A DNA stretch of 64,000 nt, from the IMG/VR virus record IMGVR_UViG_3300003320_000853; one strand, written 5' to 3'. The notes under the pieces were generated by a model that was not told where the DNA came from, made no database searches, and worked only from the letters and a program-made list of their open reading frames with translations. How positions within the stretch are numbered: the first letter of the stretch is position 1; each line of letters opens with the position of its first letter. The translations under genes were made by a program, and so were the position numbers. Origin of the DNA: a virus (taxonomy: Duplodnaviria > Caudoviricetes). Of the stretch, positions 23,878-64,000 are shown piece after piece.

Positions 23878-26142
23878 ATGGGTGACCTCGGCAACATCGG
23901 CGCATTCTTGAAGGAGGGGGCGGTCTCGAACCTCGACTGGCTCGACGTGAACGAGCAGGACTATCGAGCGCTCGACAACCTCCCCAAGCAGAACCTCGAC
24001 ATCGCGCCGGACCTTCAGGCCATCTGGGCTCATGAGGATGGCTCTGGACCGGGGAATTTCGTCCCGAACCGGGAGGGGAAGCCCCGAACGATGGGCGACC
24101 TCTCGGAGATCCACGGCCTGCTCCGGGCGAAGCCGGAGGACATCGCCAAGGTGGCTCGTCTTGCGCTCATGCAGTCAGACGACCCGGGGCGGTTCAAGCA
24201 GGCGCTCACGAACCGTTACGACCCGGAGACGCTCCGCGAGAACCGAGATGTTGTGGCGTCTATCCTCGCCGAGCGGGGGCTCCTCGGACGCTTCTACATC
24301 GACTCGTCGGACTTCCCTGGCTGCGACAACGGTTCTCGGCGGGCTTCGGATTTCGTCCGGCGTTTCGCCAACGGCGCTCGGTTCGTCGTGGCGAAGTCTG
24401 CATGCGGTGGGTGCTGCCACAACCAGAAGGGCCCCACGGGCGCAGACACGTGCTCGGTCTTCCACAAGCAGATCCAGGTCGGGGTGCCCTACTCCGACGC
24501 GCTCGCTGCCGAGGTCGAGCAGATGCAGCGGGCCAAGGGCAAGGACGTCCAGGTCTTGGCCGGCGAGGCGCCCAAGGAGCGTATCCGGCTCGCCATGCTC
24601 GCCCCCAATGCCTCGTTCCCCGGGCCGGCAGAGGAGCCGAAGCCTCGGGAGACGGTCGACCGTCTCCTCAAGCCGGTCGTCGAGGTTCCCGAAATCCAAC
24701 CCAAGGTGAACCTTGCCTCCCTCCGGGCGACGGCGAAGGAGCTGGTCGGGCTCGCCCTCCGTAAGGGCAACCTTCCTGTCGTCGAGGCGCAGGATCTCTT
24801 CTTCGCGGTGGCCCACACGGGAGACGCCGAGCATCTCCGGACGATCATCGAGAAGACAGCGGCCATCGCGGACGTCCAGGTTCCGACGCGGGTCTACCAG
24901 GGGATGGGGGAACAGCCGGCGCCGGCCGCAGTCTCTCGGGAGGAGGCTCAGAGCCAGCTCATTGCGGCTTCGAACCTCACGAAGAAGAAGGCCGAGGACA
25001 CGCGGAAGATGCTCGCCGCAGAGAAGGCGAAGCCGATCGTGGCCACGCTTCGGCGGGAGATGCTCAAGGGGCGGAGCCCGGGCGAGCTGTCCAACACGAT
25101 GAAGCATGCCTTCCAGTCGACGGATCTCCAGGCAACGCGCGATCACTGGGGTCCGATCTACCGCGAGGCCGGACTCTACGGAGTCATCTACGCAACTCAG
25201 GACAGCTTCGACGACTGCCGGGTGGGCGCAGACTTCCTCGCGAAGCAGAACCCTGGGATCAAGGCTATCGTCCGCGGCTCGAAATGCGACGGCTGCATCT
25301 ACAACAAGATCGGGCGGTGCCTCCTCTACGGCAAGCCTCTCGTCGCGTCGGCTGACGAAGTTGTCACGTGGGAGACCGCGGAGACGACCCTCCAGAACCA
25401 CAAGGCTGCGGGTCGGATTGTCCCGTGGAGTCCGGCCGCTGTCGCATGGGGTGGGACGCCGCGTGATGCTCTCCAGAATATGCACCGGGAGGCGGCGCAG
25501 AAGGGTGGGCCGACGCAGTCCCAGACGCGCCTCGATGTCGTCCGAGCGTACCACGGGGCAACCAGCTCCTCGGTCAAAACGAGCGACATCACGAAGCGCG
25601 AGATCGCCAAGACGGCTTCACGCTTCATGAACGAGGGCCTCTATGGTCGCGAGCTCCTCGCTGCGCTCAAGGCTCGGTTCGACTCTCGCGATCTCGTCGC
25701 GGCAAAGGACGACCTCAAGCCCGTCATCGCGGAGCAGGGTCTCCAGGGGATCTATTTCGTCGATCCGAGCATCTACGACGACTACGGCAAGGGGTGCGAC
25801 GAGGCTAGCCGTCTTCACCGGGCCCGGCTCATCGAATACGTCAAGGCGGGCGACCGCTGCGGATCGTGCGTTCTCCAGACGCGGCCGGGCTTCTGCTCGA
25901 AGCTCAACAAGGCGCTCGTCGACGAGCCCCCCTACTACGACAAGGCCGCGCAGCAGCGTGAGATCCTGGCTTCCGGTCCCTCGACGGACGTCCCCTTCGC
26001 GAGCCTCATGAACAACGGCCTGTCGATGATGGCTGAGTACGACCTCCAGAACAACCCGATGAGCGTCGAGGTCGACGCGGCAAAGACGGAGATGGACATC
26101 GCCATCGAGTTCGGGGTGGGGGGCCAAGGAGTCCGTCTGTGA
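23878..26142 (+). CDS. Protein with three repeated Cys-rich domains
   Basis: Three copies of E.GL.G..Y/F....F/Y..C ... CxxC ... C....K. Confidence 0.8.
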   Translation: MGDLGNIGAFLKEGAVSNLDWLDVNEQDYRALDNLPKQNLDIAPDLQAIWAHEDGSGPGNFVPNREGKPRTMGDLSEIHGLLRAKPEDIAKVARLALMQSDDPGRFKQALTNRYDPETLRENRDVVASILAERGLLGRFYIDSSDFPGCDNGSRRASDFVRRFANGARFVVAKSACGGCCHNQKGPTGADTCSVFHKQIQVGVPYSDALAAEVEQMQRAKGKDVQVLAGEAPKERIRLAMLAPNASFPGPAEEPKPRETVDRLLKPVVEVPEIQPKVNLASLRATAKELVGLALRKGNLPVVEAQDLFFAVAHTGDAEHLRTIIEKTAAIADVQVPTRVYQGMGEQPAPAAVSREEAQSQLIAASNLTKKKAEDTRKMLAAEKAKPIVATLRREMLKGRSPGELSNTMKHAFQSTDLQATRDHWGPIYREAGLYGVIYATQDSFDDCRVGADFLAKQNPGIKAIVRGSKCDGCIYNKIGRCLLYGKPLVASADEVVTWETAETTLQNHKAAGRIVPWSPAAVAWGGTPRDALQNMHREAAQKGGPTQSQTRLDVVRAYHGATSSSVKTSDITKREIAKTASRFMNEGLYGRELLAALKARFDSRDLVAAKDDLKPVIAEQGLQGIYFVDPSIYDDYGKGCDEASRLHRARLIEYVKAGDRCGSCVLQTRPGFCSKLNKALVDEPPYYDKAAQQREILASGPSTDVPFASLMNNGLSMMAEYDLQNNPMSVEVDAAKTEMDIAIEFGVGGQGVRL

Positions 26143-26600
26143 GCGACCTTTCTCGCCGCGTCCTCGCCCGCTACCTCGCTCGTCGAGAAGCTGCCCTCCG
26201 TGGGAGGACGCACGTGATGGCCTTCCTCGACGACAGCAACTACTTCCGGACGGCCGACGCGGCACCGGGACAGAGGAAGAACGACCAGAAGCTCACGCAG
26301 CCGATCAACAAGCCGAAGGGGATCAACCGCGAGATCGTGAAGGACAACGCCCGCACGGAGGACGAGCATATCGAGGAGACGGCGACGCCCGATCGGAAGG
26401 ACGTTCAGCCGAAGGACGTCTTCGCTCCGACCCCCAGGCATATGAATGTCTTGAACTTCGCCGAGACGGGCAAGGATCAAGATCAGGTGCTCCGAGACTC
26501 TGTCCCGAAGGACAAGGGATGGGACACCGTGAAGAACCTCTCTCAGTACCTTGTCCGAACGGAGGGCGGTGGGGGCACGCCGCCGGTCGGGAAGAAGTAG
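26139..26600 (+). CDS. Hypothetical protein with N-terminal LxxRVxxRY motif
   Basis: MSDLSRRVLARY; SD AAGGAG. Confidence 0.75.
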   Translation: MSDLSRRVLARYLARREAALRGRTHVMAFLDDSNYFRTADAAPGQRKNDQKLTQPINKPKGINREIVKDNARTEDEHIEETATPDRKDVQPKDVFAPTPRHMNVLNFAETGKDQDQVLRDSVPKDKGWDTVKNLSQYLVRTEGGGGTPPVGKK

Positions 26601-26608
26601 GAGGCGCT

Positions 26609-27268: not shown

Positions 27269-27271
27269 TCT

Positions 27272-29290
27272 GTGCCGGCCCCCAGAACACGCAATACAAC
27301 CACAGCCCCTAGCCTCTCGACTCTCCTGCGACAGGCGGGCAAGAACGCCAAGTCGAACGTCGAGATCCAAGAGAGGGCTCAAGCGTCGGACGGGATCACC
27401 GTTCCGACCCCCCGCGCCAATACGCCGAGGATCTTCAACATCCTCGACTACATCGAGCAGGGGTGGGGTCTCGGGATGCGCCTCTATCCCGTGCAGAGGT
27501 TCATCGTCAAGCTCTACTACCACATCCCGCTCGACGACAAGAACAAGTCCATCGAGATCACGGACATGTTCAACTCGGCGGTGATGTACCGATTCACGGA
27601 GACGGAGTACCTGCGATTCCTCTTCGAGAACGGGCGGTGCAACATCGGCGAGCAGGATCATGAGCGACGGGAGTTGCTTCTCGCCATCGGTCGGCGCGCC
27701 GGCAAGAGCACCCTGAGCGGCATCTTCGCGAGCTACGAGGTCTATCGTCTCCTGAACCTCCAGAACCCCCAGGGGTACTACGGGCTCCCGCCCGGTAACC
27801 GGATCCAGATCACCTCGATCGGGACGGACAAGGATCAGGCCGGCATTCTCTTCAACGAGGTGACGAGCCACCTCTCCCGTTGCGAATACTTCTCGCCGTT
27901 CATCGCGAACAACACCCAGAGCTACATTCAATTCCGAACGCCAGCGGACATCGAGAAGTACGGCGAAACGAAGCGTCAGGAGAACGGCAAGTTCGTTTCG
28001 TTCAACGGCAAGGCGACGCTCAGGGTCACATTCAAGTCCTGCATCGCCAAAGGGCTCCGCGGCTTCGGCAACGTCGTGATCATCCTCGACGAGATGGCCC
28101 ACTTCAAGGACAACGGCCAGTCGAGCGCGAAGGACATCTACGACGCCATCACCCCCTCGACCGCTGCCTTCTCGCCCAAGGATCCCAACGACTCGACCCA
28201 CCCGGTTGGACCCGTCGAGAGCCGGATCATCTGCATTTCCTCGCCGCTCAACAAGCAGGGGAAGTTCTACGAGCTGTACCACCTGGCCATGGGTCGGGGG
28301 CCCGGCTCGGAGAACATGCTGGCGATCCAGGCACCTACCTGGGAGGTCAACCCCACGATCGAGCCGGGCTACTACCGGCAGAAGTACCATGCGGATCCCG
28401 CGGTCTTCATGACCGAGCATGGGGCGCAATTCTCCGACCGTGTTCGCGGCTGGATCGAGCGTGAGGTCGACCTTCTGGACTGCATCGACCCGAATCTTCG
28501 TCCGAAGGATCGGGGCATGCCTCGGGCGCCCCATCAGATGGGGATCGACATCGGTCTTGTGGGTGACGGGTCGAGCATTTTCATCACCCATGTCGAGAAC
28601 GATCAGATCGTCGTCGACTACCATGAAACGTGGTACGCAGGCGTTCCTTGGGAGGAGACGAACCCTCATCTGGCCGGAGCGTACTCGACTCCCTACGCTC
28701 GAATCTTGCAGAAGGTCGAGCGTCTCGACTTCGACGAGATCGCGGAATGGATCGCCTCGCTCACCAAGCGCTTCTATATCACGGATGGCATCTTCGATCG
28801 TTGGAACGGCCTTCCCCTGGAGCAGGCGCTCTCGAAGAAGGGTCTTCGGCAATTCAAGGCGGAGTTCTTCCGTCGCGATCTGTCAAGCCAAATCTACCAG
28901 AACGCCAAGCTCATGATGTTCGACAAGCGGCTCCGGCTCTACGACTGGCCGAGACCGAAGGAGAGCTTCAAGCATTCGGACTTCATCGCGGAGTTGCTAT
29001 CTCTCCAGGCGCAGCAAATCTCGCGGAACCTGGTCGTCGTTGCAGCTCCCGAGACTGTGGGTTCGCACGACGACATGAGTGATGCCTTCGTCCGCGCCGT
29101 TTGGCTCTCGTCCCAAAAGATGTCGTCCACGAAACTCGCCCTCGGACCCTCTGAGACCCGAGGGACGGCTGGCGCCGGGATGTCCGTGGCCCGCTACCAG
29201 ATCAACCGGGCACGGGCCCATGGTGGCTTCACGGAGCGCATGTCCCCCAGGCGTGGTGCGGCCCTTGGCCGGCTGAGGCGCGGACGATGA
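27272..29290 (+). CDS. terL: Terminase large subunit
   Basis: LYPVQ, GRRAGKS Walker A, IILDE Walker B, ISSP, GID nuclease motif, HDDMSDA. Confidence 0.93.
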   Translation: MPAPRTRNTTTAPSLSTLLRQAGKNAKSNVEIQERAQASDGITVPTPRANTPRIFNILDYIEQGWGLGMRLYPVQRFIVKLYYHIPLDDKNKSIEITDMFNSAVMYRFTETEYLRFLFENGRCNIGEQDHERRELLLAIGRRAGKSTLSGIFASYEVYRLLNLQNPQGYYGLPPGNRIQITSIGTDKDQAGILFNEVTSHLSRCEYFSPFIANNTQSYIQFRTPADIEKYGETKRQENGKFVSFNGKATLRVTFKSCIAKGLRGFGNVVIILDEMAHFKDNGQSSAKDIYDAITPSTAAFSPKDPNDSTHPVGPVESRIICISSPLNKQGKFYELYHLAMGRGPGSENMLAIQAPTWEVNPTIEPGYYRQKYHADPAVFMTEHGAQFSDRVRGWIEREVDLLDCIDPNLRPKDRGMPRAPHQMGIDIGLVGDGSSIFITHVENDQIVVDYHETWYAGVPWEETNPHLAGAYSTPYARILQKVERLDFDEIAEWIASLTKRFYITDGIFDRWNGLPLEQALSKKGLRQFKAEFFRRDLSSQIYQNAKLMMFDKRLRLYDWPRPKESFKHSDFIAELLSLQAQQISRNLVVVAAPETVGSHDDMSDAFVRAVWLSSQKMSSTKLALGPSETRGTAGAGMSVARYQINRARAHGGFTERMSPRRGAALGRLRRGR

Positions 29291-30062: not shown

Positions 30063-30068
30063 GGTGCC

Positions 30069-31133: not shown

Positions 31134-31568
31134 ATGCCTCAGCAACAGAATCCGGCTCGGATGTCTGCCGACGAGATCATTCAGGAGATCCGATCCATTC
31201 GGCAGGAGATCGAGCAGCGCACGACCCGTCTCTCCGAGCTCGCCCTCTCGTTGTACACGAGGGCGCGGCATCGTCGTCTCGCCCTACCCGGAGAGGATGA
31301 ACCGGAAGACCACACCCCCTACCTCATCTTTGCCAATGGGTGGGCGCGGATGGCTGCCTCCCTCCGACAGGGGGTTCAGCGGATGAGCCGGACCGATCGG
31401 GTCATCATCCCTCGTTCCGCGGAGCCGGAGAGGGAGGAGGAGGCCATCACGGTACCGGAGCTTCCCTCTCCGATCCCTCCTCCCCCGCCCCCTCATCATG
31501 ACGAGGCGATGGAAGAACTTGTAACTCTCTACGGTGGGGAGATCGTCCACGATGCCCTCACCCGGTAG
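31134..31568 (+). CDS. Hypothetical protein
   Basis: SD AGGAGG. Confidence 0.65.
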   Translation: MPQQQNPARMSADEIIQEIRSIRQEIEQRTTRLSELALSLYTRARHRRLALPGEDEPEDHTPYLIFANGWARMAASLRQGVQRMSRTDRVIIPRSAEPEREEEAITVPELPSPIPPPPPPHHDEAMEELVTLYGGEIVHDALTR

Positions 31569-33363
31569 GATTTCGAATACTTCGACCCGTTTCACACCCC
31601 CGACCAACGGCATTCGGGGGGCGACGCCCCATGTATCCCAAGGGAACGGCGCTCGCAATCTTACGCCGAACGAGCGAGAGGCTAGACGTCAACATCGGAT
31701 GCTCCGGCGAGCGTCCGATGGGTTCGCGGTGGATCCCATCGGCGGAGCGAACACGCTCATGGCCGGAGCCCAGCAGTTCTTCTCCCCGCAGCTCTCGACC
31801 GACTTCCTGGAGTTGCCGCAGTCGATCCGCGAAAAGCGCGAGATTTACCGGCACTTCTACAACACCGACCCCATCGTGGGGCAGGCCATCGACCTCCACA
31901 CGGAGCTCCCGCTCTCGAAGGTGCGGCTCGCGGCGCCGAAGCCGCAGACGTGTCCGAAGCGGTTCAAGAGCCCCGACGACTACGGCAAGTACATCCTCTC
32001 GAAGTTCGAGAAGATGTGCAAGCGGATGAAGCTCTTCCAGAGGCTCATCACGGGCGTCCATCACTACTGGCTCGACGGGACGTGCTGCATCTTCGCGGAG
32101 GATTCAGAAGTCCAGGTGCCGGCTGAGGTGGGGTACGACCGGCAATCGGTGACCCGCAGCATCCTGGACGATGACGGCAATGCCCGAGAGGTGCAGGAGG
32201 AGGCGTGGATCGAGCGTCCCGACCGAGAGGAGCAGGAGCTCGCCTACTACCAACAGCACTACCGTGGGTGGGAGCGGCTCATCATCGTCCCGATTGACCA
32301 GGTCCAGATCACCTCGTGGTCGTTCAGCGACAAGGTCCGCATCGAGCTGATCCCTTCGGACAGGGACAGGGCCATCATCGAGCAGGCGCGGATGGGCGAT
32401 CCCGAGGCCGAGGAGATGGCCAACGAGATCCCCGAAGAGGTACGGGCGCATATCGAGGAGGGCAGGCTCATCCCGCTTGGCACCGATCCGGACGAGGGGT
32501 CTTTCGCCTACCTGCTCTGTGGCCGGAAGGGTGCCGGGGAGGAGCTGGGGCAGAGCATCCTCGATCGCTGCCTTCGGACGCTCTACTACCGGGAGAAGCT
32601 TCGTCAGGCGCAGACGCAGATCGCCAGCCGGGCGATGACTCCGAAGCGTGTCGTGTGGGCCGAGGACATCTCGGAAGCCGACGTCGAGGATCTGCGCGAA
32701 CAGGTGGACCTCTCGCTCGTCGACCCTGATTACTCGATCGTCGCAAACTACGAGATCCATTGGGAAGAGATGGGGTCGAAGGATCGCCTCCTCGACCTAT
32801 CGGCGGAGTACGAGGTGACCGATCGCCAGCTTCATGCGGGGCTCGGGGTGACGGAGAGCCTCCTCTCTGGGGAGTCCCTCTACTCGGGCGACCGCCTCAA
32901 GCTTGAGGTGATCAACACGCGCTACCTCTTCCTCCGGGAGATCCTCCAGGAGTACGTCGAGGAGGAGCTCTTCAAGCCCGTCGCCCGACGCATGGGCTTC
33001 ATCGAGAAGGACGAGTGGGGGGACGAGATCGTGCTCTACCCCAGGCTTTCGTTCACGCGGCTTCCGCTCCGGGACAGCCAGGACACGTTCGACGCGATGT
33101 TCAACCTCTACACGAAGGGATCGCTCCCGGTGGAGGCCATCCTGGAGCTTCTCAACCTCGACGCCAACGACATCAAGGCGAAGCTAGAGCGGGACTTCGG
33201 CACGATGAACGACGCCGTGTTCAACGAGCTGACCCGCGGGATGTACACGGGCATTGCCGAGAAGCTGGCGGGGGAGACGGACTTCGCCGAGAAGATCGCC
33301 AAGTACCTCGGCCTCAAGCTCAAGCCGAAGCCCGCCGAAGAGGGCGAGGACAGGTTTGGCTAG
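31552..33363 (+). CDS. Portal protein
   Basis: YRHFYNTDPIVGQAIDLHTELP, GQSILDRC...KLRQAQ, GLGVTESLLSG; lies between TerL and protease. Confidence 0.85.
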   Translation: MPSPGRISNTSTRFTPPTNGIRGATPHVSQGNGARNLTPNEREARRQHRMLRRASDGFAVDPIGGANTLMAGAQQFFSPQLSTDFLELPQSIREKREIYRHFYNTDPIVGQAIDLHTELPLSKVRLAAPKPQTCPKRFKSPDDYGKYILSKFEKMCKRMKLFQRLITGVHHYWLDGTCCIFAEDSEVQVPAEVGYDRQSVTRSILDDDGNAREVQEEAWIERPDREEQELAYYQQHYRGWERLIIVPIDQVQITSWSFSDKVRIELIPSDRDRAIIEQARMGDPEAEEMANEIPEEVRAHIEEGRLIPLGTDPDEGSFAYLLCGRKGAGEELGQSILDRCLRTLYYREKLRQAQTQIASRAMTPKRVVWAEDISEADVEDLREQVDLSLVDPDYSIVANYEIHWEEMGSKDRLLDLSAEYEVTDRQLHAGLGVTESLLSGESLYSGDRLKLEVINTRYLFLREILQEYVEEELFKPVARRMGFIEKDEWGDEIVLYPRLSFTRLPLRDSQDTFDAMFNLYTKGSLPVEAILELLNLDANDIKAKLERDFGTMNDAVFNELTRGMYTGIAEKLAGETDFAEKIAKYLGLKLKPKPAEEGEDRFG

Positions 33364-34347: not shown

Positions 34348-37323
34348 GTGATGCTCCGGTCGGCGACCAAGGACACCTACGAGCGCGAGAACGATGAGGC
34401 CGAGCGCCTTGTTCGACCCTCGCCCAAGGTCAAGCCCCCCCGTCGCGACAAGCGCCGGGAGCGCATCGACTCGGATCCCGAGGAGGAGAGGGACAAGGAT
34501 CTGTCCCTCAACTACAAGGACGTCGGAGGCGCTGTCCTCCGACGCTTCCTCGCGGAGAAGAGCAAGGGGAAAGTCAAGGTCATCAAGAAGGACACGGGCG
34601 AGACGACCTACATCAAGCCCGAGACCCTCAAGGATCGTCCGGAGGATTACGTCCTTCCCGAGGCCGGAGAGGCCGCCGAGTGGTCGCCGGAAGACCTGGC
34701 GGCACATGGGAAGGGCAAGGCGCTTTGGGAGCAAGCCCAGGGCGACCCGGAGCTTCAATCCATCTTCCGGGATCTGGTCAACCCGAAGTCTCAAGGCGCG
34801 GGCTATCTCGCTCGGAGCACCCCTGGCTTCCCGGCGGGGCCGATGATGCGTGGTCGGGCCCTGCCCGACGGAGTCGAGAACCTGGGGCAGCTCCTCAAGG
34901 TCTTGGAGCAGGGGCAGAAAACACCTCCGAAGCCCAAGGACGAGCCCAAGCCTGAGACTCCTTCAGCCGAAGAGACGGCTCCCAGCACTTCCGCCGGAGA
35001 CGAGCCTGTGGCCGAAGCTCCGCCTGAGAAGGGCGAAGAGGAGAAGGCGGAACCGGAGCCGGAGAAAAACGCACCCGAGGATCAGCCGGAGAAGCCCAAG
35101 GAGGAGAAGGGCAAGAAGCCCTCCGGTGAGAAGAAGCCGGGGAAGGTGCCCGAACCGGAGCGACGCAAGCCCGAGGATTGGGAGCTGATGGCTTCGCGGT
35201 CGGCCATTTTGGAGACGCTTCCCAAGGGGGAGATGCGCGATCGTCTCATCGACGCCCGGCTTCATCCCGACGATGTGAGCGAGATCCTCGCGACGTACCA
35301 CACGGCGAAGTCTGCGGATCTCGGTCAGAAGGGCGCTGAAAAGCTCATCGACCACGCTCGGAACTGGTTCGAGCCGGACCCTTCGAAGATCGGGACGCCG
35401 AAATTCGGCAAGGATCGGGCCGGCAACGAGAAGCCATTCGAGGAGCTGAACCCCGAGGAGAAGGCCGAGGCGACAGTCCATCACCGGAACCGGACGGTGG
35501 CGTTGAGCCTCGCGGCACACGACCAGGTGACCCGTTCGCTCACGAAGAACCTCGGAGCTCCGCCCGCGCTCGCTGATTTCCTCTCTGCCTTCATGCTGGG
35601 GCAGAAGCCTCCGAAGGAAGGGGCACCTCCTCCCGACCCGGCGGAGGTGGACGCGAAGTCGCGGGCGCTCTCGAAAAAGGTCTTCGAGAAGGTGCTCGCG
35701 GGAGGTCAGGACGAGACAGTTTCGCCGAACGCGATCAAGAACGTCATCGACTTCACGAAGGACGACCCCACGGCGCAACGTGCGGCAGTGGCTTACTTCC
35801 AGGCTCGGGACTACCAGGCGGCCCGCGAGAAGTGGCTGAACCCGTCGTCTCCGAACGCCATCTCGGAGCACCAGGGGCCCACGGATATCTCCCGCGGGCT
35901 CGTCGAGGGTAGCCGGTACCTTGTGGATCGCTCGCGGCTGTACCCTGCCGTATCGGTCACCCAGGATCCTGCCGGTGCATTCCGAAACCGTGTTCTCCAG
36001 CACATCAAGACGCTCGTCCCGGAGAAGTACCCCTTCGTCCGCAAGCACGTCGATGTCTATGAGCACCAGCTCTACGACTCCGAGGTCAAGCGCCACGAGA
36101 AGATCGTCAACCGGGTGATGGATCGGTACCAGAAGGACGTCCGGCGGGTGCTCGACAAGCACGACCGCGCCGTGGAGAAGATCCGGGGCAAGCACGAACA
36201 GACGATCGACACCTACAAGGACGAGGCCAAGGCGTACGACAAGGAGTACCGGAAGTACGTCAAGGAGAAGATCCGGCACCAGAAGCTCGTCCAGGAGGCC
36301 CTCCAGAAGGACAAGGGCGAGGACTACCGGGAGTCTCCGACCGAGGGGTTGCCAGAGCCGCCCAAGGCTCCGACGCCTCCGAAGCCCCCGCCGGACATCA
36401 ATCTGCCGGACGTCCCTCCGTTGCCGCCCGAGCCGCTTCTCCCGGAGGCTCCGGCGAAGCCGGTGAGATACGGGCTTGCCGACGACGATCTCGACGAGGA
36501 ACGCGAACGGTTGTGGGAGGAGCAGAAGCGTCAAGCATCCTCTTATCCGTCGCGAAAGGCAATGGGACTGCCGAACCGAGAAGCCGTCTACTGGGGGGTC
36601 GATCCGTACCCTCCGGAGAGCGAAGCCCACGGCGCGTACCCCGAATGGTCTCAGGCACACGCCCGGGATCTCGGCGAGAAAGACTTCTCGGGGCTGCTCA
36701 AGTCGGCTCGCGAGTGGCTCCGCACGCCCATCCTTTCAAAGGCCGTCGAGGGCATCGAGAAGGACACGCAGCTCCGTGCGGCACTCGATCTGGCCATCCG
36801 ATCTCACGAGGGAGGCCGGTACTCGGTCGGTCTCCACCCGCAACTCTACAACCAGCTCCTCGCCAGGTTGGCGGGCAAATCCGAGGATGAGACCCTGACC
36901 ACGGTTCGCGCGGCAATCACACGCGATTCCGTTTATGTCGTCGCAGGAGACAAGACCATGAGCGCATCGGCCCAAGTCCGCAAGTTCGCCACCTCCATCG
37001 CCGCGTCGAACCCCGACGTCGCCTACGATCTCGTGGGCCTCGCCGATCACCTCGCTCAGGAGGAGCAGCAACAGGCCAAGGAACAGCAGGCTCAGCAGAA
37101 GCAGGGCGGCGAGGTTCCTCCTCAGTTCTTGGAGCACCAGAAGAAGAAGGAAGAGGAGAAGGGCCAGGATCATGGGCAGGGTCAGCAGAGCGAACAGCAG
37201 AAGCAGGCTGGTGCCCTCGCCTACCGCACCCTCAAGGCGTCGGTTCTGAACGCGGCGAAGCTGAACCCGGCCATCCGGAACGCTCTCCACCCGGTGCTCC
37301 AGACGATCAAGCAGCTCGGCTGA
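34348..37323 (+). CDS. Large head-module protein (991 aa) with probable internal starts at 36562 and 36958
   Basis: Charged/Pro-rich segments; AGGAG SD before ATG 36958; Q-rich C-terminus. Confidence 0.75.
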   Translation: MMLRSATKDTYERENDEAERLVRPSPKVKPPRRDKRRERIDSDPEEERDKDLSLNYKDVGGAVLRRFLAEKSKGKVKVIKKDTGETTYIKPETLKDRPEDYVLPEAGEAAEWSPEDLAAHGKGKALWEQAQGDPELQSIFRDLVNPKSQGAGYLARSTPGFPAGPMMRGRALPDGVENLGQLLKVLEQGQKTPPKPKDEPKPETPSAEETAPSTSAGDEPVAEAPPEKGEEEKAEPEPEKNAPEDQPEKPKEEKGKKPSGEKKPGKVPEPERRKPEDWELMASRSAILETLPKGEMRDRLIDARLHPDDVSEILATYHTAKSADLGQKGAEKLIDHARNWFEPDPSKIGTPKFGKDRAGNEKPFEELNPEEKAEATVHHRNRTVALSLAAHDQVTRSLTKNLGAPPALADFLSAFMLGQKPPKEGAPPPDPAEVDAKSRALSKKVFEKVLAGGQDETVSPNAIKNVIDFTKDDPTAQRAAVAYFQARDYQAAREKWLNPSSPNAISEHQGPTDISRGLVEGSRYLVDRSRLYPAVSVTQDPAGAFRNRVLQHIKTLVPEKYPFVRKHVDVYEHQLYDSEVKRHEKIVNRVMDRYQKDVRRVLDKHDRAVEKIRGKHEQTIDTYKDEAKAYDKEYRKYVKEKIRHQKLVQEALQKDKGEDYRESPTEGLPEPPKAPTPPKPPPDINLPDVPPLPPEPLLPEAPAKPVRYGLADDDLDEERERLWEEQKRQASSYPSRKAMGLPNREAVYWGVDPYPPESEAHGAYPEWSQAHARDLGEKDFSGLLKSAREWLRTPILSKAVEGIEKDTQLRAALDLAIRSHEGGRYSVGLHPQLYNQLLARLAGKSEDETLTTVRAAITRDSVYVVAGDKTMSASAQVRKFATSIAASNPDVAYDLVGLADHLAQEEQQQAKEQQAQQKQGGEVPPQFLEHQKKKEEEKGQDHGQGQQSEQQKQAGALAYRTLKASVLNAAKLNPAIRNALHPVLQTIKQLG

Positions 37324-37754: not shown

Positions 37755-38477
37755 GTGGCGATCGACTACTGGCGCCTCGCAAATGACTTCGAGGTAGGAG
37801 GGACCGTCCAGCGGTTCGTTCCCGGCCTCGGGGGTCTTTCTCTGTCCCCGTTCCTTGGTCGTGTGACGGCCGTCCACAAGGGGCTCGGGGTGGTCGACGT
37901 CCAGTGGCCGTACGGCAACGAGCGGATGTTCCCGGATGATGTCGTTCGCGTCGACCCTCGGCTTGGGGTCTATCTCCCGCCGACGCTCGATCAGATGTAC
38001 TCCTCCTACGACACACAGAAGCAGGCCAAGACGGCAAACCGGGGCCAGTGGCGGACCATCGAGGTGCCGCCCGAGTTCCACCGGGAGCTGGCGCGTCTTT
38101 ACGCCAAGAAGGCGTCGGACGTGCTCGCCTACGACGAGTTGTGGAAGCGGTACGCCTCGACGGTCTCCGACGACATCCTCCGGGCCGAAGTGAAGCGGTT
38201 CTACAAGGTGGCCTCGAACCTGGTCGAGCTCCGGGTCCAACAGCACGCAGCGAAGACGGCGGCCTATTGGGTCGCGCAGAACCGGCAGTACCGGGTCACG
38301 GCGGAGGAGCATCAGAGCAAGAAGCCCTTCTGCCCTCGATGCGGCAAGGTGATGCGGAAGACGACCTACAAGATGGACAAGGGGGCGAAGCATCGTCTCT
38401 TCGCCTGTCCCAAGGATCTCTTCCTCATTCAACAGGAGCACCTTCTCGGTCCGGGCGGCGAGCCCGTGGAGTGGTGA
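37755..38477 (+). CDS. Hypothetical protein with C-terminal zinc ribbon
   Basis: CPRC...CPKD. Confidence 0.75.
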   Translation: MAIDYWRLANDFEVGGTVQRFVPGLGGLSLSPFLGRVTAVHKGLGVVDVQWPYGNERMFPDDVVRVDPRLGVYLPPTLDQMYSSYDTQKQAKTANRGQWRTIEVPPEFHRELARLYAKKASDVLAYDELWKRYASTVSDDILRAEVKRFYKVASNLVELRVQQHAAKTAAYWVAQNRQYRVTAEEHQSKKPFCPRCGKVMRKTTYKMDKGAKHRLFACPKDLFLIQQEHLLGPGGEPVEW

Positions 38478-38480: not shown

Positions 38481-38819
38481 ATGGATCTCGTTGCTCGCGT
38501 TGTTGCCCGATATCAGGGAGTCAAGGTTGCGGGGAAGTACCATTCCGTGATGGTCGACCTGGTATCGCGGATCGATGACTTGAGAGATCCTGACAAGATC
38601 AAGCAAGATCGAGAGCGTGTTCTCAAGCTCGGGGAGATGATTTCCGCCGATGAGGAATGGCACGCGTCCCCGGCGGCACAGGGATTGGCAGCGCATGCTG
38701 TCGTTCAGAGGACGGAGGATCTGGCCGAGGCGCTCTATGAGCTGGCGTTCGTAACCCGGCGGGTGCAAGAATCGTACGACGACATGAATGAAACCTTCCT
38801 CCGGCTCGGGTTGAAGTAA
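38481..38819 (+). CDS. Hypothetical protein with N-terminal LxxRVxxRY motif
   Basis: MDLVARVVARY. Confidence 0.7.
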   Translation: MDLVARVVARYQGVKVAGKYHSVMVDLVSRIDDLRDPDKIKQDRERVLKLGEMISADEEWHASPAAQGLAAHAVVQRTEDLAEALYELAFVTRRVQESYDDMNETFLRLGLK

Positions 38820-46494: not shown

Positions 46495-46524
46495 GACCCC
46501 TCCATCCTGGTGTAGGAACACCAG

Positions 46525-49406: not shown

Positions 49407-49452
49407 ATCTCGCCCCATAGCTGAGGATCTCCTTTTGCTGGCCCTTCCGGTG

Positions 49453-50589
49453 ATGGGCGAGACGGAGATCGGCGATGGGTGCGTGCGAGCTTCCCAACAG
49501 GAGAAGCAAGCCTCCGGCATCGTCGTGTACCTCATGGAGGAGCTGGGGGACGCCCGCCTCCGGACAGCCCAGCTCAAGAAGTACATTCAAGAAGCTCTCG
49601 ATCTCGTCGAGAAGTCTCCGGAGCGGGACAGGATCTTCGAGATCGCTGGCCACCTCCTCCACGGCATTCCCGACACCGCCTTCAAGCTCGACAAGGCTCT
49701 CGACGCGGCGGCGATGGCGGCGGCTCGTCTCGACTACGAGGAGATCAAGCAGAACCTCAAGCCCGAGAAGGCCGACGAACTTGAGGACGTCTTGAATGAC
49801 GTCCGGCTCAACATTCTCAAGAGGCGTTCGAACATGGAATCTACGGTCACAGCCGAGCATCGGTCAGGCAAGGTCGCTGCGCTTCTCAAGCTTGCCTTCC
49901 TCATGGGGCAACATGAGAGCAAGTCTCCACCCTCGAAGCACGTTACTTCGGACGACTTGCAGGGATTCGCGGAAGAATCCTGCCAGGTCGTTGCCCAGAA
50001 ACTTCAGTTGTTGGCGGGCATGATCAAGAGGGGGTCCCCAAACATCGAGGGTCTTCTCGGAGACATTGGGGGACACCTTGAGACGGGCCTGTGGTTCTAC
50101 GGCCAATCCTTGGCGGAGAAGCCTACGGGATCCATGACAGCGGAACAGCACAGAGGAACGACCATGAAGAGCGCGAAGGAAGCTGCGGCGGAGTTGGTTC
50201 AGCTTGCCGAGATCACGGAGGCCACGGGGCAGGTTCCGCTCGTCCGTCTCGCCAAGCTCATCCGGGCCCTGGAGGGGCCCCAGGCCCGCACGGCTTCGGA
50301 CGTCCCGAAGAACGCGGCTTCCTTCTTCCGGAACGTCGCGACGGCGATCCAGAAGGAGGCCAACCCGAGCCGTCTCCGGCTCGCGAACGTCCTCCGCAAG
50401 GTCTTCGCAGACGGGATGCAGATGGACGCTGGCACCATGCTCGCGGCCATCTACGCCCAGGCGAACTCGCGCGAGGACGTCATCAAGGGGTTCATGAGCG
50501 CCAATCCCAGCATGTCGAAGGAGGACGCCGAGAAGGCGGCCGACATGTGGGAGAAGCACAAGGACGTCGTCAAGGACAAGCACCAGTAG
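49453..50589 (+). CDS. Hypothetical helical protein; possible internal start at 50164
   Basis: Coding bias; AGAGGA before MKSAKEAA. Confidence 0.7.
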   Translation: MGETEIGDGCVRASQQEKQASGIVVYLMEELGDARLRTAQLKKYIQEALDLVEKSPERDRIFEIAGHLLHGIPDTAFKLDKALDAAAMAAARLDYEEIKQNLKPEKADELEDVLNDVRLNILKRRSNMESTVTAEHRSGKVAALLKLAFLMGQHESKSPPSKHVTSDDLQGFAEESCQVVAQKLQLLAGMIKRGSPNIEGLLGDIGGHLETGLWFYGQSLAEKPTGSMTAEQHRGTTMKSAKEAAAELVQLAEITEATGQVPLVRLAKLIRALEGPQARTASDVPKNAASFFRNVATAIQKEANPSRLRLANVLRKVFADGMQMDAGTMLAAIYAQANSREDVIKGFMSANPSMSKEDAEKAADMWEKHKDVVKDKHQ

Positions 50590-50595: not shown

Positions 50596-50853
50596 ATGGC
50601 TACAACACTTGTCGATCGAGTTGTCCGTCGATTTCTTCAGGGGAATACGTCGAAGGTCAGTCGTATGACCCTCCCCCAGGTCTACAACAACCTGAAGATC
50701 ATCTACGACTACGAAGAGGGCAAGACCAAATCTCGGCCGGGGGCTGAGCAACTCGTCAACGACGCCATCAAGCGTCTGGAAGATGAGGGGATCGACGTCT
50801 CGGGAGCCCTTCGGACCATGACCAAGGGGCCTCGGGGATGGATCGACATGTGA
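50596..50853 (+). CDS. Hypothetical protein with LxxRVxxRF motif
   Basis: MATTLVDRVVRRF. Confidence 0.7.
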   Translation: MATTLVDRVVRRFLQGNTSKVSRMTLPQVYNNLKIIYDYEEGKTKSRPGAEQLVNDAIKRLEDEGIDVSGALRTMTKGPRGWIDM

Positions 50854-51191
50854 ATCTCGCCGACCGCGTCCTCCACAGGTACAAAAGCGCGGCGAACAAG
50901 GCGCTCACGGATGCGGAGTATCAAAAGACCGCCACCGACGTGCTCGCGGCGATCAAGCGGATCGGAGAGGACACCAGTACGGTTCGGGAGGGTGTCGTCA
51001 ACATGGCGCTCACGCTCAAAGATCGAGGTCACTTCCGTGATGCCTCGACTTTGATGGAGATGGCTCCGGACATGAGCGGCGTGCCCGAGCATCTATCGGC
51101 CATGGTCGAGCGTCTCAAGAAGGTCCCCGCCGACATGCGCAAGTCCCCGAAGCCCGGGCCGAAACCGAACCCCTGGACGAAGCCCCTCTAG
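50850..51191 (+). CDS. Hypothetical protein with LxxRVxxRY motif
   Basis: GTGA coupling; (M)NLADRVLHRY. Confidence 0.7.
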   Translation: MNLADRVLHRYKSAANKALTDAEYQKTATDVLAAIKRIGEDTSTVREGVVNMALTLKDRGHFRDASTLMEMAPDMSGVPEHLSAMVERLKKVPADMRKSPKPGPKPNPWTKPL

Positions 51192-57950: not shown

Positions 57951-57960
57951 GGAGGCTAAA

Positions 57961-58940: not shown

Positions 58941-58943
58941 CCC

Positions 58944-59831: not shown

Positions 59832-59840
59832 GGGGTAGGC

Positions 59841-62600
59841 GTGGGTATCGGCTTTACCCCTCTATCCGAAGGCCCGATCGGGAACTTTCCCAACGATGAG
59901 ATCCTCATCGGGATCTCGGGTCTTGGGACGCTTACTTCTACAGGCGTCGATGTCCACGTAGGGAGCGGATCTTCGACGGGCGCCGCGGTCCTTTCTTGTA
60001 CGGGCGTTGATGCCCACGTTGGAACGTGCTCCTCCTCTGGCGCTGCAACGGCAACGTGTGCCGGCGTTGTAACGGGGACCACGATCACAATTGCAGGCGT
60101 TGGGACCCTCTCCTGCGTTGGCGTCGATGTTCACGTTGGATCCGCTGCTATCTCTGGGGTGGGAGCCCTCACCTCGGGCGGGATCGACGCTCACATTGGG
60201 TCGGGATCCTCCGCGGGCGTCGGATCGGATGCTGCGGTTGGCGTCGATGTTCACGTCGGGTCCGGTACCAGCGCTGGCGTAGGTACGGCATCCGGATCCG
60301 GCGTCGATGCCCATCCCGGAACGGGATCGAGTGCGGGCGTCGGTGCAGCTTCTGCATCCGGTATTGATGCCCATGTCGGCACCCTTGCCAGCTCGGGTCT
60401 CGGGACCGAGACGACCTCCGGCATCAATGTCCACGTTGGGTCCCCCTCTATCTCCGGGCAGGGGACAGCAACGGCGACGGGGGTCGATGAACACCTCGCG
60501 ACTGTCTCGATCACGGGCGTCGGCACCCTTTCATGTACCGGCGTCGATGCTCGCATTGCCACACAGACGAGTGCTGGATCTGGTACAGCTTCGGCGTCTG
60601 GTGTCGACGCCCATCCGGGAACGGCAGCCATCTCGGGCGTCGGAGCTCTCTCTTGTGGGGGCGTGGACGTTCATGTTGGGGCGGCGACCATCGCTGGCCT
60701 TGGAACGGAGACTTGCAGCGGGGTCGACGTTCACATCGCGTCCGTATCGAGTTCGGGGCAGGGATCCCTATCTTGCTCGTCGGTCGATGCCCATCCCGCT
60801 ACCGCATCGAGCTCGGGGACGTCGTCCCTCTCTTGCTCCGCCATCGAAGCCGTTCCTGCCACTTGGAACTCGGCGGGTCTCGGAACTGCGTCGTGCGTTG
60901 GGGTTCTCGTCGATGCGGCCCTCGTCCAGATCGCGGGAACGGCGACCCTCACCAGCGCGGGCGTGGACGTTCATGTTGGGACGAACGCAAGTTCGGGCAC
61001 TGGCGTCGCTTCGGGTTCCGGGATTCAGGCGGTTCCAGGCACGGCATCGATCTCGGGGACGGCTACAGCTTCATGCACCGCGGTCGATGCTCATCCGGGA
61101 ACGGGCACGTCCGCGGGACATGGCACCCTGTCCTGCTCGGCGATCCTCGCCCGCACGGGGGTTCTCAGCTCGGCCGGAACTGGGACGGCGGCGTGTGATG
61201 GGCAAGTCGAAAACCCGACCGGCGTCGAAGCGGATGGGATCGGGGTTCTCACCTGTGCTGGCATTGATGCCCATGTCGGGGCTCCCGCTGCCTCTGGGGT
61301 GGGATTCGCGATCTCGGTCGGGGTCGATGCCCACCTCGGAGCCTTGTCTTCCGCGGGCGTCGGAACCCTCTCCGCAACCGGCGTCGATGCCCGGGTATCG
61401 AGCGCGTCCCTCTCCGGAGCAGCGACGGCGACGGCGGCAGGAATTCAGGCGGTCCCTGGCACGGCGTCCGCACATGGGGCAGGGTCTCTTGCCTGCTCGG
61501 CCCTGCAAGCGGTCCCAGGTGTTCTGGCTGCGCATGGTGCGGCCACGGCTTCCTGCTCGGCTCTACAAGCCGACGTGGGGCTATGCCAGGCCTCGGGCCT
61601 CGCGACCACAAGTTGTGCAGGGGTTCGTACTCACGTCGGCATTCTCTCGGCGGCGGGAAGTGCGTCCGCTTCTGTGTCAGGTGGGCAGACCATCATCGGG
61701 ATCGCAGCGGCGCAGGGGTCTGCCGTTGTCTCGATCACGGGAGTCCATACGCATGTCGCGGCCCAAGCCGCCAACGGTTCGGCCTCCGCAGTTTGTGATG
61801 GCAATGTCATTCAGCCCGAGCACCTTGAATCACAAGGGGAGGCGGTCCTTGGAGTCCAGGGCGTTCATGTCGTAACGCTGCCCGTCAGCATCCTCGGACA
61901 GGGGACTCTCCTGTGTGCTGGGGTTCGCGTTGAAACCAACACGGAACACAGCTCGGGCATCGCCGTCGTTATTCCCGTCGGGCATCTGCTCGCCGTGGGG
62001 AATTTGCTGGCCCATGGCGCCAGTGTGTTGGTGTGTATTGGGGTCAACCACCCGCCGGTCGCCGGGCAGGTCCCGTTCCTTGGGTTTGGAGATACGCATG
62101 CCAGTGTGATCCGTATCGACTACCTGACGGCGGCGTTTTTGGGCGATGGGGCTGTGTTTCTCATCGGGTACCCAGAAGCTATGGTGGGGGTCGGGTACCT
62201 CACCGCGGTCCTGAACATCACGAACCTCCCGCCCATCAATGTCCCGCGTCCGCCGACTTTCCCCTTGGGCCATGTCTTCACCAGCGGGGACTTGACCTTC
62301 CAGGTCAAGGATGCGGCGGGCAATCCTCTCTCGCCGTTCGTGCTCACCTACGCGATCTTCCAGGTAAGGGCGGGGAACGTCCTCTTGCCCTTTGGCGACC
62401 CCAAGAGGCGGCCGGTGATGGGCATGGACGGACAGTTCTACCCGAGCTTCCTGGCCGACGACTTGGGGCAGCCGGGAGACTTCCTCCTCCGGTGGACCTA
62501 TCAAGAAAGTTTTTCTTCGCCCCCCGTTGTGAAGGACATCCCGTTCCGGATCAATGGGACCAGAGCGAATGGCACGCGAACACAGCGAGGGTGGTTCTGA
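59841..62600 (+). CDS. Long fiber-like protein of 20-aa repeats with a C-terminal Ig-like domain
   Basis: Tandem G(V/I)D(V/A)H(V/P)G..S..G.G..S repeats. Confidence 0.8.
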   Translation: MGIGFTPLSEGPIGNFPNDEILIGISGLGTLTSTGVDVHVGSGSSTGAAVLSCTGVDAHVGTCSSSGAATATCAGVVTGTTITIAGVGTLSCVGVDVHVGSAAISGVGALTSGGIDAHIGSGSSAGVGSDAAVGVDVHVGSGTSAGVGTASGSGVDAHPGTGSSAGVGAASASGIDAHVGTLASSGLGTETTSGINVHVGSPSISGQGTATATGVDEHLATVSITGVGTLSCTGVDARIATQTSAGSGTASASGVDAHPGTAAISGVGALSCGGVDVHVGAATIAGLGTETCSGVDVHIASVSSSGQGSLSCSSVDAHPATASSSGTSSLSCSAIEAVPATWNSAGLGTASCVGVLVDAALVQIAGTATLTSAGVDVHVGTNASSGTGVASGSGIQAVPGTASISGTATASCTAVDAHPGTGTSAGHGTLSCSAILARTGVLSSAGTGTAACDGQVENPTGVEADGIGVLTCAGIDAHVGAPAASGVGFAISVGVDAHLGALSSAGVGTLSATGVDARVSSASLSGAATATAAGIQAVPGTASAHGAGSLACSALQAVPGVLAAHGAATASCSALQADVGLCQASGLATTSCAGVRTHVGILSAAGSASASVSGGQTIIGIAAAQGSAVVSITGVHTHVAAQAANGSASAVCDGNVIQPEHLESQGEAVLGVQGVHVVTLPVSILGQGTLLCAGVRVETNTEHSSGIAVVIPVGHLLAVGNLLAHGASVLVCIGVNHPPVAGQVPFLGFGDTHASVIRIDYLTAAFLGDGAVFLIGYPEAMVGVGYLTAVLNITNLPPINVPRPPTFPLGHVFTSGDLTFQVKDAAGNPLSPFVLTYAIFQVRAGNVLLPFGDPKRRPVMGMDGQFYPSFLADDLGQPGDFLLRWTYQESFSSPPVVKDIPFRINGTRANGTRTQRGWF
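59920..62050 (+). repeat. Degenerate 60-bp coding tandem repeat
   Basis: GGCGTCGATG(C/T)(C/T)CA(C/T) recurs at about 60-nt spacing. Confidence 0.8.
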
Positions 62601-62985
62601 CATTGCGGTGCGCGTTGCCCGCCGGTACTCCGGGTCAAAGCAGGTAGCCTTGAACCAGGACTTCTGGTTGACGCCTTCCGACATCGCCGAGGTCTGCCCG
62701 CCCTGTGCAACACGGATGGCGAGCCTCGGGATTCGCCGGATCCGGGCATCGGTGATCTTCGGGCAGGACATGCTCCGGCTGGCTTCGTCTGCGCACACAG
62801 CCGAGGCGTGGAAGAACCTGCCCGAGGGCTGGACGGACGACTCTCGGCGGAAGTTCTGGGAGTCCATCGGGGGATCTCTCCAGAAGTGCATGGCGAAGGT
62901 CGAGGGCCACGTGACCGACCCTGGAGCATTCGCCACCGCGCTCCGGGATCGGATCGAGCAATCCGGTTGGAAGGGACCTACATGA
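62569..62985 (+). CDS. Hypothetical protein with IxxRVxxRY motif
   Basis: DIAVRVARRY; CPPC; WKNLPEGW; start uncertain. Confidence 0.6.
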   Translation: MAREHSEGGSDIAVRVARRYSGSKQVALNQDFWLTPSDIAEVCPPCATRMASLGIRRIRASVIFGQDMLRLASSAHTAEAWKNLPEGWTDDSRRKFWESIGGSLQKCMAKVEGHVTDPGAFATALRDRIEQSGWKGPT

Positions 62986-63623
62986 GCACGTTGACGCAGC
63001 GGGTGATTAGGCGGTTCAAGAGAGCGTCTACCCGCACAGCGTCGAAGTTCGTTCCCCTGGGGGATGAACTAGACGACTTGAAGCGCTTCCCCAAGAAGCT
63101 CGCCGGCTATGTGGCGGACTTCGAGCAGGCTCTACAGATTCTAGGAAAGATCCAGGAGGTCTTGGAAAGCAAGCGCCTCGGAGAAGTTCTCCGTTCCGAT
63201 ATGGAGAATCTTGCCGAAGTCCGAGGTCTTGCCAAGAAGACGGAGGAATATCTCCGTGATGCCCTGACGGTCAGCGCCTACTATGTCGCCGAGTACACGA
63301 AGGGGGTCGCCTATTTGAAAGCGCACCCTGACAGTGAATTCAACATGGACGATCACCCCCATGATCACCATCTGCCCGCGCAGATGCGCGCCCTCAATGA
63401 GGGCTTGGGAAAAGCCTTCGCGGGGATCAAATCGCTCGACCTCGTCGATGACCTTCAAGATCATCTGGGAAGCAAACCCCTTGCCTCGGTAAAGAAGCTG
63501 CTTGTAGACATTCCGACGACGCCGCACGAGACTTCTGCGGAGTTCGGCTTCCTCGATACACTCGCCGACTCGATCGACAACGCCTACGACTTCACCATCG
63601 AGACCATCTCGGAGGACGCGTGA
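62982..63623 (+). CDS. Helical protein with LxxRVxxRF motif
   Basis: ATGA coupling; MSTLTQRVIRRF. Confidence 0.7.
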   Translation: MSTLTQRVIRRFKRASTRTASKFVPLGDELDDLKRFPKKLAGYVADFEQALQILGKIQEVLESKRLGEVLRSDMENLAEVRGLAKKTEEYLRDALTVSAYYVAEYTKGVAYLKAHPDSEFNMDDHPHDHHLPAQMRALNEGLGKAFAGIKSLDLVDDLQDHLGSKPLASVKKLLVDIPTTPHETSAEFGFLDTLADSIDNAYDFTIETISEDA

Positions 63624-64000
63624 CCATCAGCCTTGCCCGACGTGTGCTCCGTCGATACCAGCGTCAGGTCCGAGGGTCCTCGAATGATTGGTACTTGTTC
63701 GAGGATGCGTGGACAGAGATCGAGGCATACCCCGGGAAGATCAAAGCCTATGCGGGGGAGTACGCAAAGGTGATCGCTGCCACGGAGAAGGTCCAGGAAC
63801 TCTTGAAGAGTCCGCCAATTGCCCGGGCCATCAAGGCAGACAAGTCTTTTCTTGCGGGGGTGCAGGAACTCGCGAAGGATGCAGACAGTCTCATCGAGGA
63901 TCTGCGCAAGTTCGACAAAGCCTACTACAAGACCGTTGAGGAGGCGCGGGTTTTCCTGAAGGAAAACCCCAAGGGCAAGTTCGAATTCAAGTCTCTTCGG
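63620..64000 (+). CDS. Paralog of the preceding gene, 3' truncated by window (absent from ORF track)
   Basis: GTG start, SD GGAGG; (M)TISLARRVLRRY...YPGKIKAY...EKVQELLKS...FLKENP aligns with FPKKLAGY...GKIQEVLES...YLKAHP. Confidence 0.7.
   Translation, partial: MTISLARRVLRRYQRQVRGSSNDWYLFEDAWTEIEAYPGKIKAYAGEYAKVIAATEKVQELLKSPPIARAIKADKSFLAGVQELAKDADSLIEDLRKFDKAYYKTVEEARVFLKENPKGKFEFKSLR

Follow-up and report, generated by a model that had tools for sequence, protein, structure and literature searches.

A shared N-terminal peptide on late proteins of an uncultured huge phage is a portable address label that may direct its carriers to the capsid

The 64,000-nucleotide stretch of viral DNA analyzed here (Duplodnaviria; Caudoviricetes; IMG/VR record IMGVR_UViG_3300003320_000853), referred to in its full length as the window, harbors eight late genes on its plus strand whose mostly unrelated products begin with the same short peptide, the tag. 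The initial annotation had listed eight copies of this peptide, and all eight were found at the reported places, described by the strict motif [LIVM]xxR[VIL]xxR[YF]. The first carrier gene (26139-26600; tag 26148-26174, SDLSRRVLARYLAR) encodes a basic low-complexity protein of 153 amino acids, and its GTG start overlaps the stop codon of the upstream gene for a 754-residue protein. The second (38481-38819; tag 38487-38513, MDLVARVVARYQGV) encodes a predicted helical protein of 112 residues, starts 4 nucleotides past the conserved head-module gene at 37755-38477 and ends 3 nucleotides ahead of the prohead protease gene. The third carrier (44064-44699; tag 44070-44096, MTLNDRVLARFKQS; 211 residues), for which the gene caller on record had a longer start, lies 0.7 kilobases (kb) downstream of the major capsid gene. 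The fourth (50596-50853; tag 50608-50634, MATTLVDRVVRRFLQG; 85 residues) starts 7 nucleotides past the conserved gene at 49435-50589, and its stop codon is overlapped by the fifth (50838-51191; tag 50856-50882, NLADRVLHRYKSA), which encodes 113-117 residues with a start at either ATG 50838 or GTG 50850. For the sixth carrier (62554-62985; tag 62602-62628, SDIAVRVARRYSGS; 128-143 residues) the start options are ATG 62554, ATG 62569, or ATT 62602 just past the stop of a gene for a 919-residue protein, and a sequence from a relative (L003, SDLTSRVAHRYSGSKK) is likely its ortholog as judged from the flanking residues only. The remaining two are paralogs of each other, an acidic protein of 213 residues (62982-63623; tag 62991-63017, MSTLTQRVIRRFKRA) and a protein of at least 126 residues (63620-64000; tag 63632-63658, TISLARRVLRRYQRQ) whose gene runs past the end of the window. 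Starts were ambiguous on three carriers, and the tag falls within the first 25 residues under every start.

All carriers exhibit coding-type G+C by codon position and encode hydrophilic proteins (grand average of hydropathy -0.3 to -1.0) that are devoid of any hydrophobic segment. Family searches of the carriers in Pfam and PHROGs returned nothing, and the carriers at 38481 and 62982 were orphans in a search of 5.8 billion proteins. Twin-arginine (Tat) signals consist of S/T-R-R-x-F-L-K ahead of a hydrophobic h-region with its cleavage site; this candidate was rejected because those tags that read RRF or RRY have no hydrophobic stretch behind them.

The strict motif matched ten times on the plus strand of the window and not once on the minus strand. 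Eight of the ten matches lie 0-12 residues from a start codon, and the remaining two fall inside a 991-residue protein (36103) and in a non-coding frame (3020). When each of the 64 called proteins of the window was shuffled, a mean of 0.017 N-terminal copies was expected versus the eight observed, and motif matches anywhere in these proteins numbered nine as compared to 0.25 by shuffling. A tag profile, built in part from the window's own copies, scored the eight at 14.5-18.2 bits in a search of all six frames of the window, with the next best match at 6.9 bits. The reported absence of the peptide from the replication block was confirmed, since none of the 23 genes called between 1 and 23.9 kb carry it, versus eight of the 41 late genes. 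A weak look-alike at 20945 (LGLTQGRVRHRF) is situated 180 residues inside its protein rather than at the N-terminus and is presumably a helix-turn-helix, which we take it to be by its likeness to sigma region 4.2.

Whether the tag could be an artefact, produced by chance, by paralogy or by a translated nucleotide signal such as a translation-initiation or promoter element, can be judged from these counts together with the composition of the copies. Each copy does sit at a translation start, and two of the carriers are paralogs, as this explanation would have it; eight copies versus 0.017 expected speak against it. All-against-all BLASTP, which bore out the description of the carriers as mostly unrelated, gave 62982/63620 as the one paralogous pair (E 8e-15), while the remaining six carriers have nothing but the peptide in common, and paralogy was rejected as the cause except for this pair. 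As the initial annotation had noted, codons differ between copies: arginine is encoded by CGC, CGG, CGA, CGT or AGG, valine by GTC, GTT or GTG, and leucine by CTT, CTC or TTG. Since synonymous codons vary at every conserved residue, conservation is at the protein level, and a nucleotide-level signal was rejected. Furthermore, internal and tandem copies are known away from start codons, and the tag is retained in homologs down to approximately 30% identity. We consider the probability of an artefact negligible. Chance, paralogy and a nucleotide-level signal are excluded as explanations, and the tag is genuine: a portable address label that is conserved as protein and restricted to one clade.

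The window has a G+C content of 63% and its genes are almost all on the plus strand; the sole clear minus-strand genes (45056-46530 and 47717-48052) are inserted just downstream of the capsid region. Its proteins were placed on a 376,986-bp contig through the protein database, corresponding to a phage genome of about 377 kb. Genes between 0.6 and 20.4 kb encode replication and recombination functions (NAD-dependent ligase, exonuclease V/Dda-like helicase, UvsX-like recombinase, SbcCD-like nucleases, clamp loader and exonuclease). The head module begins at approximately 26 kb and encodes terminase, portal, a 991-residue protein, protease, presumed scaffold, a 211-residue decoration-like protein and capsid protein. 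The large terminase subunit (phrog_2) is encoded at 27272-29290 on the plus strand, as are the other head genes named here, with the first carrier located just upstream of the terminase genes, and the portal gene (phrog_16240; 31534-33363) marks the module. The prohead protease (38822-40276; 484 residues) is a candidate both for reading and for removing the tag; further candidate readers are the presumed scaffold (40352-41722; 456 residues, Gln-rich and of low complexity), encoded between the protease and capsid genes, and, via its inner surface, the major capsid protein (phrog_2522; 42463-43344; 293 residues).

The capsid protein belongs to the family found in phage G and in mycobacteriophages such as Myrna. 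Among 558 IMG/VR relatives, on contigs up to 529 kb, the best 80 match it with at least 90% identity; identity falls to 82% for the uncultured phage LR745208, to 48% for Tunturiibacter phage Tunturi_5 and to 39% for Bacillus phage G. These values identify the source as an uncultured huge phage of the phage G-like lineage. Megablast of the late region against GenBank phages gave no match. The C-terminus of the capsid protein (43315-43344) reads ALTRVVVQRF before the stop codon, a near match to the tag with one additional residue between both arginines, which is probably a coincidence.

Only one carrier is conserved, the approximately 1000-residue low-complexity protein encoded beside the portal gene, which in the window has 991 residues (34348-37323, plus strand) and begins about 1 kb downstream of the portal gene. 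The partial AVLRRF that had been noticed in this open reading frame (ORF) is indeed present at 34531-34548, directly past a conserved DLSLNYKDVGG, although in degenerate form. In the loci of nine relatives a full or variant tag occupies the same place (DLSLNYKxVGGS-xx-RVxxRF), and the L054 ortholog has two tags in tandem. The window protein also holds an internal motif, IVNRVMDRY (36103-36129), and gave no family hit and no usable ESM Atlas hit.

The starts of carrier genes overlap the upstream stop codon or fall 4-7 nucleotides after it, and the upstream genes are conserved head-region genes, to which the carriers appear to be translationally coupled. Between the gene at 37755-38477 and the protease gene, many relatives have nothing in the slot and others have various small genes there, some of them tagged, such as the L001 slot gene (MVTGARVLQRF). 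The internal-protein genes of T-even phages are likewise variable. Several slot genes share another N-terminus, M-x-Y-[ST]-Y-[DA]-R-[RT] (L006 5608, L032 6304, L033 6273, L058 2113 and L068 6234), which might represent either an additional tag or mere membership of a single gene family. The carriers evolve fast: three of four tested carriers had no homolog in 80 capsid-linked loci, in which adjoining genes were 38-79% identical.

Beyond the window, the tag was found on at least 55 distinct N-termini in approximately 1.2 Mb of related huge-phage DNA. The profile gave 7-17 hits in each of eight related records (235-529 kb), one weak hit in LR745208 and none in Tunturi_5 or phage G, a distribution by which the tag appears specific to one clade. 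Among 45 hits with E <= 0.01, 13 were within 20 kb of the capsid gene versus 5.2 expected (2.5-fold, p = 0.0013). A search of the literature on huge phages found no described tag of this kind.

The sister lineages LR745208 and phage G have common N-termini of their own that are concentrated in the head module. In phage G, a cultured relative, an analogous N-terminus, [KST]-R-[LI]-[KI]-[KS], is present on the head-module proteins gp5, gp9, gp10, gp13, gp17, gp20 and gp38, with gp13 reading MKRLISKTAARY. Seven of ten matches to this peptide in a 40-kb region (L081, NC_023719 3295-44134) are gene starts, and none are on the other strand. The phage G proteomics paper does not mention analogous tagged proteins (PMC12484599).

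The proposal that the peptide is a portable sorting signal on diverse cargo was upheld by its modularity, its tandem copies, the existence of tag-less homologs and a lineage-specific tag swap on a conserved body. The family of the 44064 carrier comprises at least 62 proteins, most of which carry RVAARF, RVVARY or RVASRH at residues 6-7. The linker from tag to body is of variable length; several members have two tandem tags or a Cys-rich extension in front, and distant members have no tag or a Lys/Ile version of it. The body itself, which in the family alignment (A1) contains an invariant AGKRGK motif within a conserved TDLTNAGKRGKKV and yields a confident two-lobed alpha/beta model, had no match in the PDB by Foldseek (predicted local distance difference test score, pLDDT, 92), and VIA-align gave Z <5. 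Similarly, a tagged 445-residue protein of a related record aligns with its homologs in Agrobacterium phage Atu_ph07 and Salicola phage SCTP-2 only from residue 19 onward, past the tag, and the annotated Atu_ph07 homolog has just 7 residues ahead of the aligned part. Another tagged protein in relatives contains an HExxH sequence. A 455-residue protein (L086 9665-11032) has an N-terminal Lys variant of the tag, RVLAKY (MSTSQSLRVLAKYKAKKK), on a type IB topoisomerase catalytic core (PF01028, E 8e-27), and a second tag, ERVIARFLSQ, ahead of a 165-residue C-terminal module.

In LR745208 the 44064-type body is preceded by SLRGRVIRLAHENPALRPHLLPLLKQAG, another lineage-specific peptide. This second peptide, (MTT)LRSKLIRLAHENPALRPxLLPLLKEAG, extends over about 30 residues and is present on three proteins of LR745208.1, two of them encoded in the head module (L090 10710-11114 and 18337-19392) and the third being the 44064 homolog (L091), where the peptide heads the body within a 594-residue open frame. 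The same tag type is borne by P0062, a member of the 44064 family. Since the tag is swapped whole between lineages while the cargo body stays, a lineage-specific reader is suggested.

The 55 non-redundant N-terminal copies, taken from the window and the related DNA and selected for a distance of no more than 12 codons from a possible start, yield the consensus x-[LT]-A-x-R-V-[AVL]-[AH]-R-[YF]-[LK]-[QA]-A-[SKT] over approximately 13 residues. R, V, R and the aromatic residue are invariant at fixed spacing, and no conservation was detected past position +4. AlphaFold2 modeled the 44064 family (37 sequences, mean pLDDT 92) with the tag as a separate helix of lower confidence at residues 3-12, followed by a loop and then the confident alpha/beta body. 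The initial annotation had described the peptide as an amphipathic helix. A separate helix is predicted, while its amphipathic character was evident in part of the copies only, with a hydrophobic moment clearly beyond shuffles (0.79-0.85, top ~1%) in three of the eight window tags and unremarkable values in the other five. A helix that presents an L-V-Y/F face, an Ala stripe and two fixed arginines is a more fitting description of the tag than a strongly amphipathic helix.

These properties bear on two explanations that dispense with a dedicated receptor. The tag might be an amphipathic helix of a generic kind, with affinity for membrane or nucleic acid and no specific protein reader, as could be expected from an Arg-rich peptide with a high helical hydrophobic moment in three of eight copies. 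With five of eight not significantly amphipathic, a strict conservation at fixed positions that exceeds the needs of lipid or DNA binding, a tag that is swapped whole between lineages, and hydrophilic carriers free of hydrophobic segments, we regard this as quite improbable and as the weakest of the three rivals that accept the tag as genuine. Alternatively, tags might bind each other or the tagged ~1000-residue protein, forming by helical oligomerization an inner-body-like mass or condensate that needs no separate receptor and may still enter the head. An Ala stripe (position 6 and position +3) beside the L, V and Y/F face would suit helix-helix packing, tandem copies exist, the conserved large protein has one to two tags, and no untagged conserved protein stands out as reader. 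With 9-13 residues, however, the helix would be rather short to form a stable coiled coil, and the two conserved arginines would repel each other in a parallel homo-oligomer, so that self-binding appears improbable as well.

The residues directly after the core displayed a pattern of their own. [LVI]-x-A at +1 to +3 occurs in 17 of the 55 tags versus a background of 1.7% (p = 3e-17), and in that register only; four of the 55 additionally have Ser/Thr at +4, and two or three of the eight window tags have Ala at +3. Assemblin-like cleavage after the tag, which this pattern brings to mind, is a lead and not a finding. The signal may instead be part of the helix face or docking surface, since Ala at +3 falls there.

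The best-fitting reading, to which we assign about an even chance, is that the tag is a capsid-loading (prohead-targeting) signal, as the initial annotation had proposed. The evidence for this destination is circumstantial: the carriers fill head-operon slots of variable content, with starts coupled to conserved head genes, the sole conserved carrier adjoins the portal gene, tagged genes are enriched near the capsid gene, and the sister lineages LR745208 and phage G have head-module N-termini of their own. The tag would then act as an N-terminal portable address label, a short helix ahead of a variable linker, through which accessory proteins, along with the conserved ~1000-residue internal protein, attach to some part of the prohead during assembly; the scaffold core, the additional C-terminal protease domain and the interior surface of the capsid protein are candidates for this part. 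Once attached, the proteins would become trapped in the head and could exit with the DNA, in a function parallel to that of the capsid-targeting sequence of T4 internal proteins. The capsid destination, the identity of the reader and the removal of the tag by the prohead protease are all points that we infer.

Several observations weigh against capsid loading. Approximately 70% of the tag hits in related genomes are more than 20 kb from the capsid gene, and one tagged homolog lies among tRNA-synthetase, Pth2 and DnaJ-like genes. Tags are sometimes internal or in tandem, unlike the T4 sequence, only about 4-8 residues separate tag and folded body in the 44064 family, and across the 55 copies no T4-like Glu cleavage site (L/I-x-E) is conserved after the tag. 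The tag is absent from the protease, the scaffold, the decoration-like protein, the capsid protein and the proteins at 37354, 37755, 48147 and 49435. The C-terminal domain of the protease, an all-alpha model of eight helices, had no PDB match and no recognizable peptide-binding fold, and checks of divergence, fold and tags singled out no head-module protein as the reader.

The same scatter of tagged genes over the genome, often amid non-structural genes, is what would be expected if the reader was outside the capsid, with the tag addressing an AAA+ unfoldase (ClpX) or a chaperone (DnaK with a J-protein) that controls turnover, remodeling or localization of the accessory proteins. The R-V-[LVA]-x-R-[YF] core is a short hydrophobic stretch with basic flanks, like generic DnaK/ClpX motifs, the window contains one C-terminally tagged gene (44720-45055), and phage G is reported to encode both ClpX and ClpP (PMC12484599). 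A degradation tag would nevertheless be hard to rationalize on a conserved ~1000-residue head-operon protein and on head-coupled genes, the fixed spacing of the invariant R, V, R and aromatic residues would suit a single specific partner better than a generic chaperone site, and the hits are enriched near the capsid gene. We consider this the main alternative to capsid loading, possible if on balance unlikely.

Returning to capsid loading, the candidate readers could be narrowed to some extent. The prohead protease consists of a protease domain (approximately residues 1-265), a linker and an all-alpha C-terminal domain of about 170 residues (~310-484) that is absent from the proteases of Tunturi_5 (287 residues) and phage G (300 residues). 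Within the protease domain are four invariant cysteines (C178, C185, C188 and C199), which may form a zinc ribbon. Past this domain the relatives have a conserved KIQVAFS segment, which in the window protease reads KLKSALAE. Neither the single protease sequence nor a profile of it matched a Pfam family or a PDB sequence, which leaves no family from which to infer its specificity. A comparison of the window with LR745208 by divergence did not discriminate among readers, since all proteins other than capsid and portal were strongly diverged. Judged by conservation, the capsid protein appears to be the only head protein constant enough throughout the clade to explain one constant tag; the different tag of LR745208 despite 82% capsid protein identity counts against it as the reader.

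A C-terminal label was also observed in the window. The gene at 44720-45055 (plus strand) encodes a 111-residue protein that ends in PAPTAWEHLLADDPV directly before the stop codon, a C-terminal PTAWEHLL-acidic tag, which places both tag systems in the late region. At the left end of the window, a 5'-open ORF (2-592, plus strand) contains an in-frame TAG (530-532) followed by 19 in-frame codons (VEHPVYPTAWEHLLAEDPV) and TAA (590-592), so that this stop separates the C-terminal tag from the body. Programmed read-through resulting in tagged and untagged forms, a recent nonsense mutation and a recoded stop are possible causes.

A wider reading, which we regard as doubtful, is that the clade runs a protein-sorting code in which at least two orthogonal labels, the N-terminal RVxxR[YF] helix and the C-terminal PTAWEHLL-acidic tail, are distributed over dozens of fast-evolving accessory proteins, each label with its own co-evolving phage-encoded receptor. 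That LR745208 has a different tag in front of the same body suggests such co-evolution of label and receptor lineage by lineage. If this reading is true, the N-terminal tag would define the injected proteome of a whole uncultured clade from sequence.

Should the tag load head cargo, the proteins delivered to hosts would become readable from sequence in an uncultivated clade of soil and water phages with genomes of about 230-530 kb, and this delivered set would include a type IB topoisomerase together with many orphan proteins of unknown fold. The phage G-like lineage would then have acquired capsid targeting of the T4 style either on its own or by divergence so deep that the kinship can no longer be seen, with tag and reader replaced jointly from one sister lineage to the next. 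A portable tag of 13 residues would be a practical handle for the packaging of foreign proteins into very large capsids. If the reader is not the capsid, the tag would mark an undescribed sorting system in huge phages.

Among known systems, the closest parallel to capsid loading is the capsid-targeting sequence of T4, approximately ten N-terminal residues (MKTYQEFIAE) on the internal proteins IPI, IPII and IPIII and on Alt that are removed by the gp21 prohead protease. Both are short, predicted helical N-terminal peptides on otherwise unrelated, fast-evolving accessory proteins, both are separable from the body, in both the carrier genes occupy variable slots, and each of the two phages encodes a prohead protease besides a separate scaffold. 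The eight window tags, like the T4 peptide, are at the extreme N-terminus (0-12 residues from the start) and are common to unrelated proteins. In sequence the two differ, as the consensus LAxRVAARYLQA shares no residue in register with MKTYQEFIAE; the tag is basic with two invariant arginines while the T4 peptide is acidic and Glu-ended, and the tag is not followed by a conserved L/I-x-E cleavage site. In addition, the tag has many more carriers per genome (7-17 profile hits), and some of its copies are arranged in tandem or placed ahead of internal modules, as on the ~1000-residue protein.

In phiKZ-like giant phages, propeptides of head and ejection proteins are cut by the prohead protease after Glu at S/A/G-x-E, and they are not known to have one common short motif. 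The resemblance lies in the many proteins that are loaded into the head and processed by the prohead protease in phiKZ, 201phi2-1 and SPN3US (PMC10052503, PMC7411985). The head genes of the phage studied here are unrelated to those of the phiKZ lineage. Encapsulin cargo-loading peptides and the C-terminal tail of the HK97 prohead protease are likewise portable short peptides, which dock cargo inside an HK97-fold shell or on a delta domain, and among the head proteins of the tag clade conservation is highest in the capsid protein (at least 90% identity), as would be the case for a common receptor. These peptides are C-terminal and extended, however, whereas the tag is N-terminal and predicted helical, and LR745208 has another tag at 82% capsid protein identity.

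Herpesvirus assemblin, which has the same fold as phage prohead proteases, cleaves release and maturation sites of the form (V/L/I)-x-A|S, for example YLQA|S in herpes simplex virus 1. The continuation of the tag, R-[YF]-L-[QA]-A-[SKT], is similar to such a site, but only about a third of the tags fit it and Ser/Thr at P1' is present in 4 of 55. Finally, SspB-type ClpX-binding tails and the N-terminal degrons recognized by ClpX are also short terminal peptides with a basic-hydrophobic core that bring many substrates to one reader; in contrast to these, the head-operon context of the tag and the conserved tagged protein adjacent to the portal fit assembly better than degradation.

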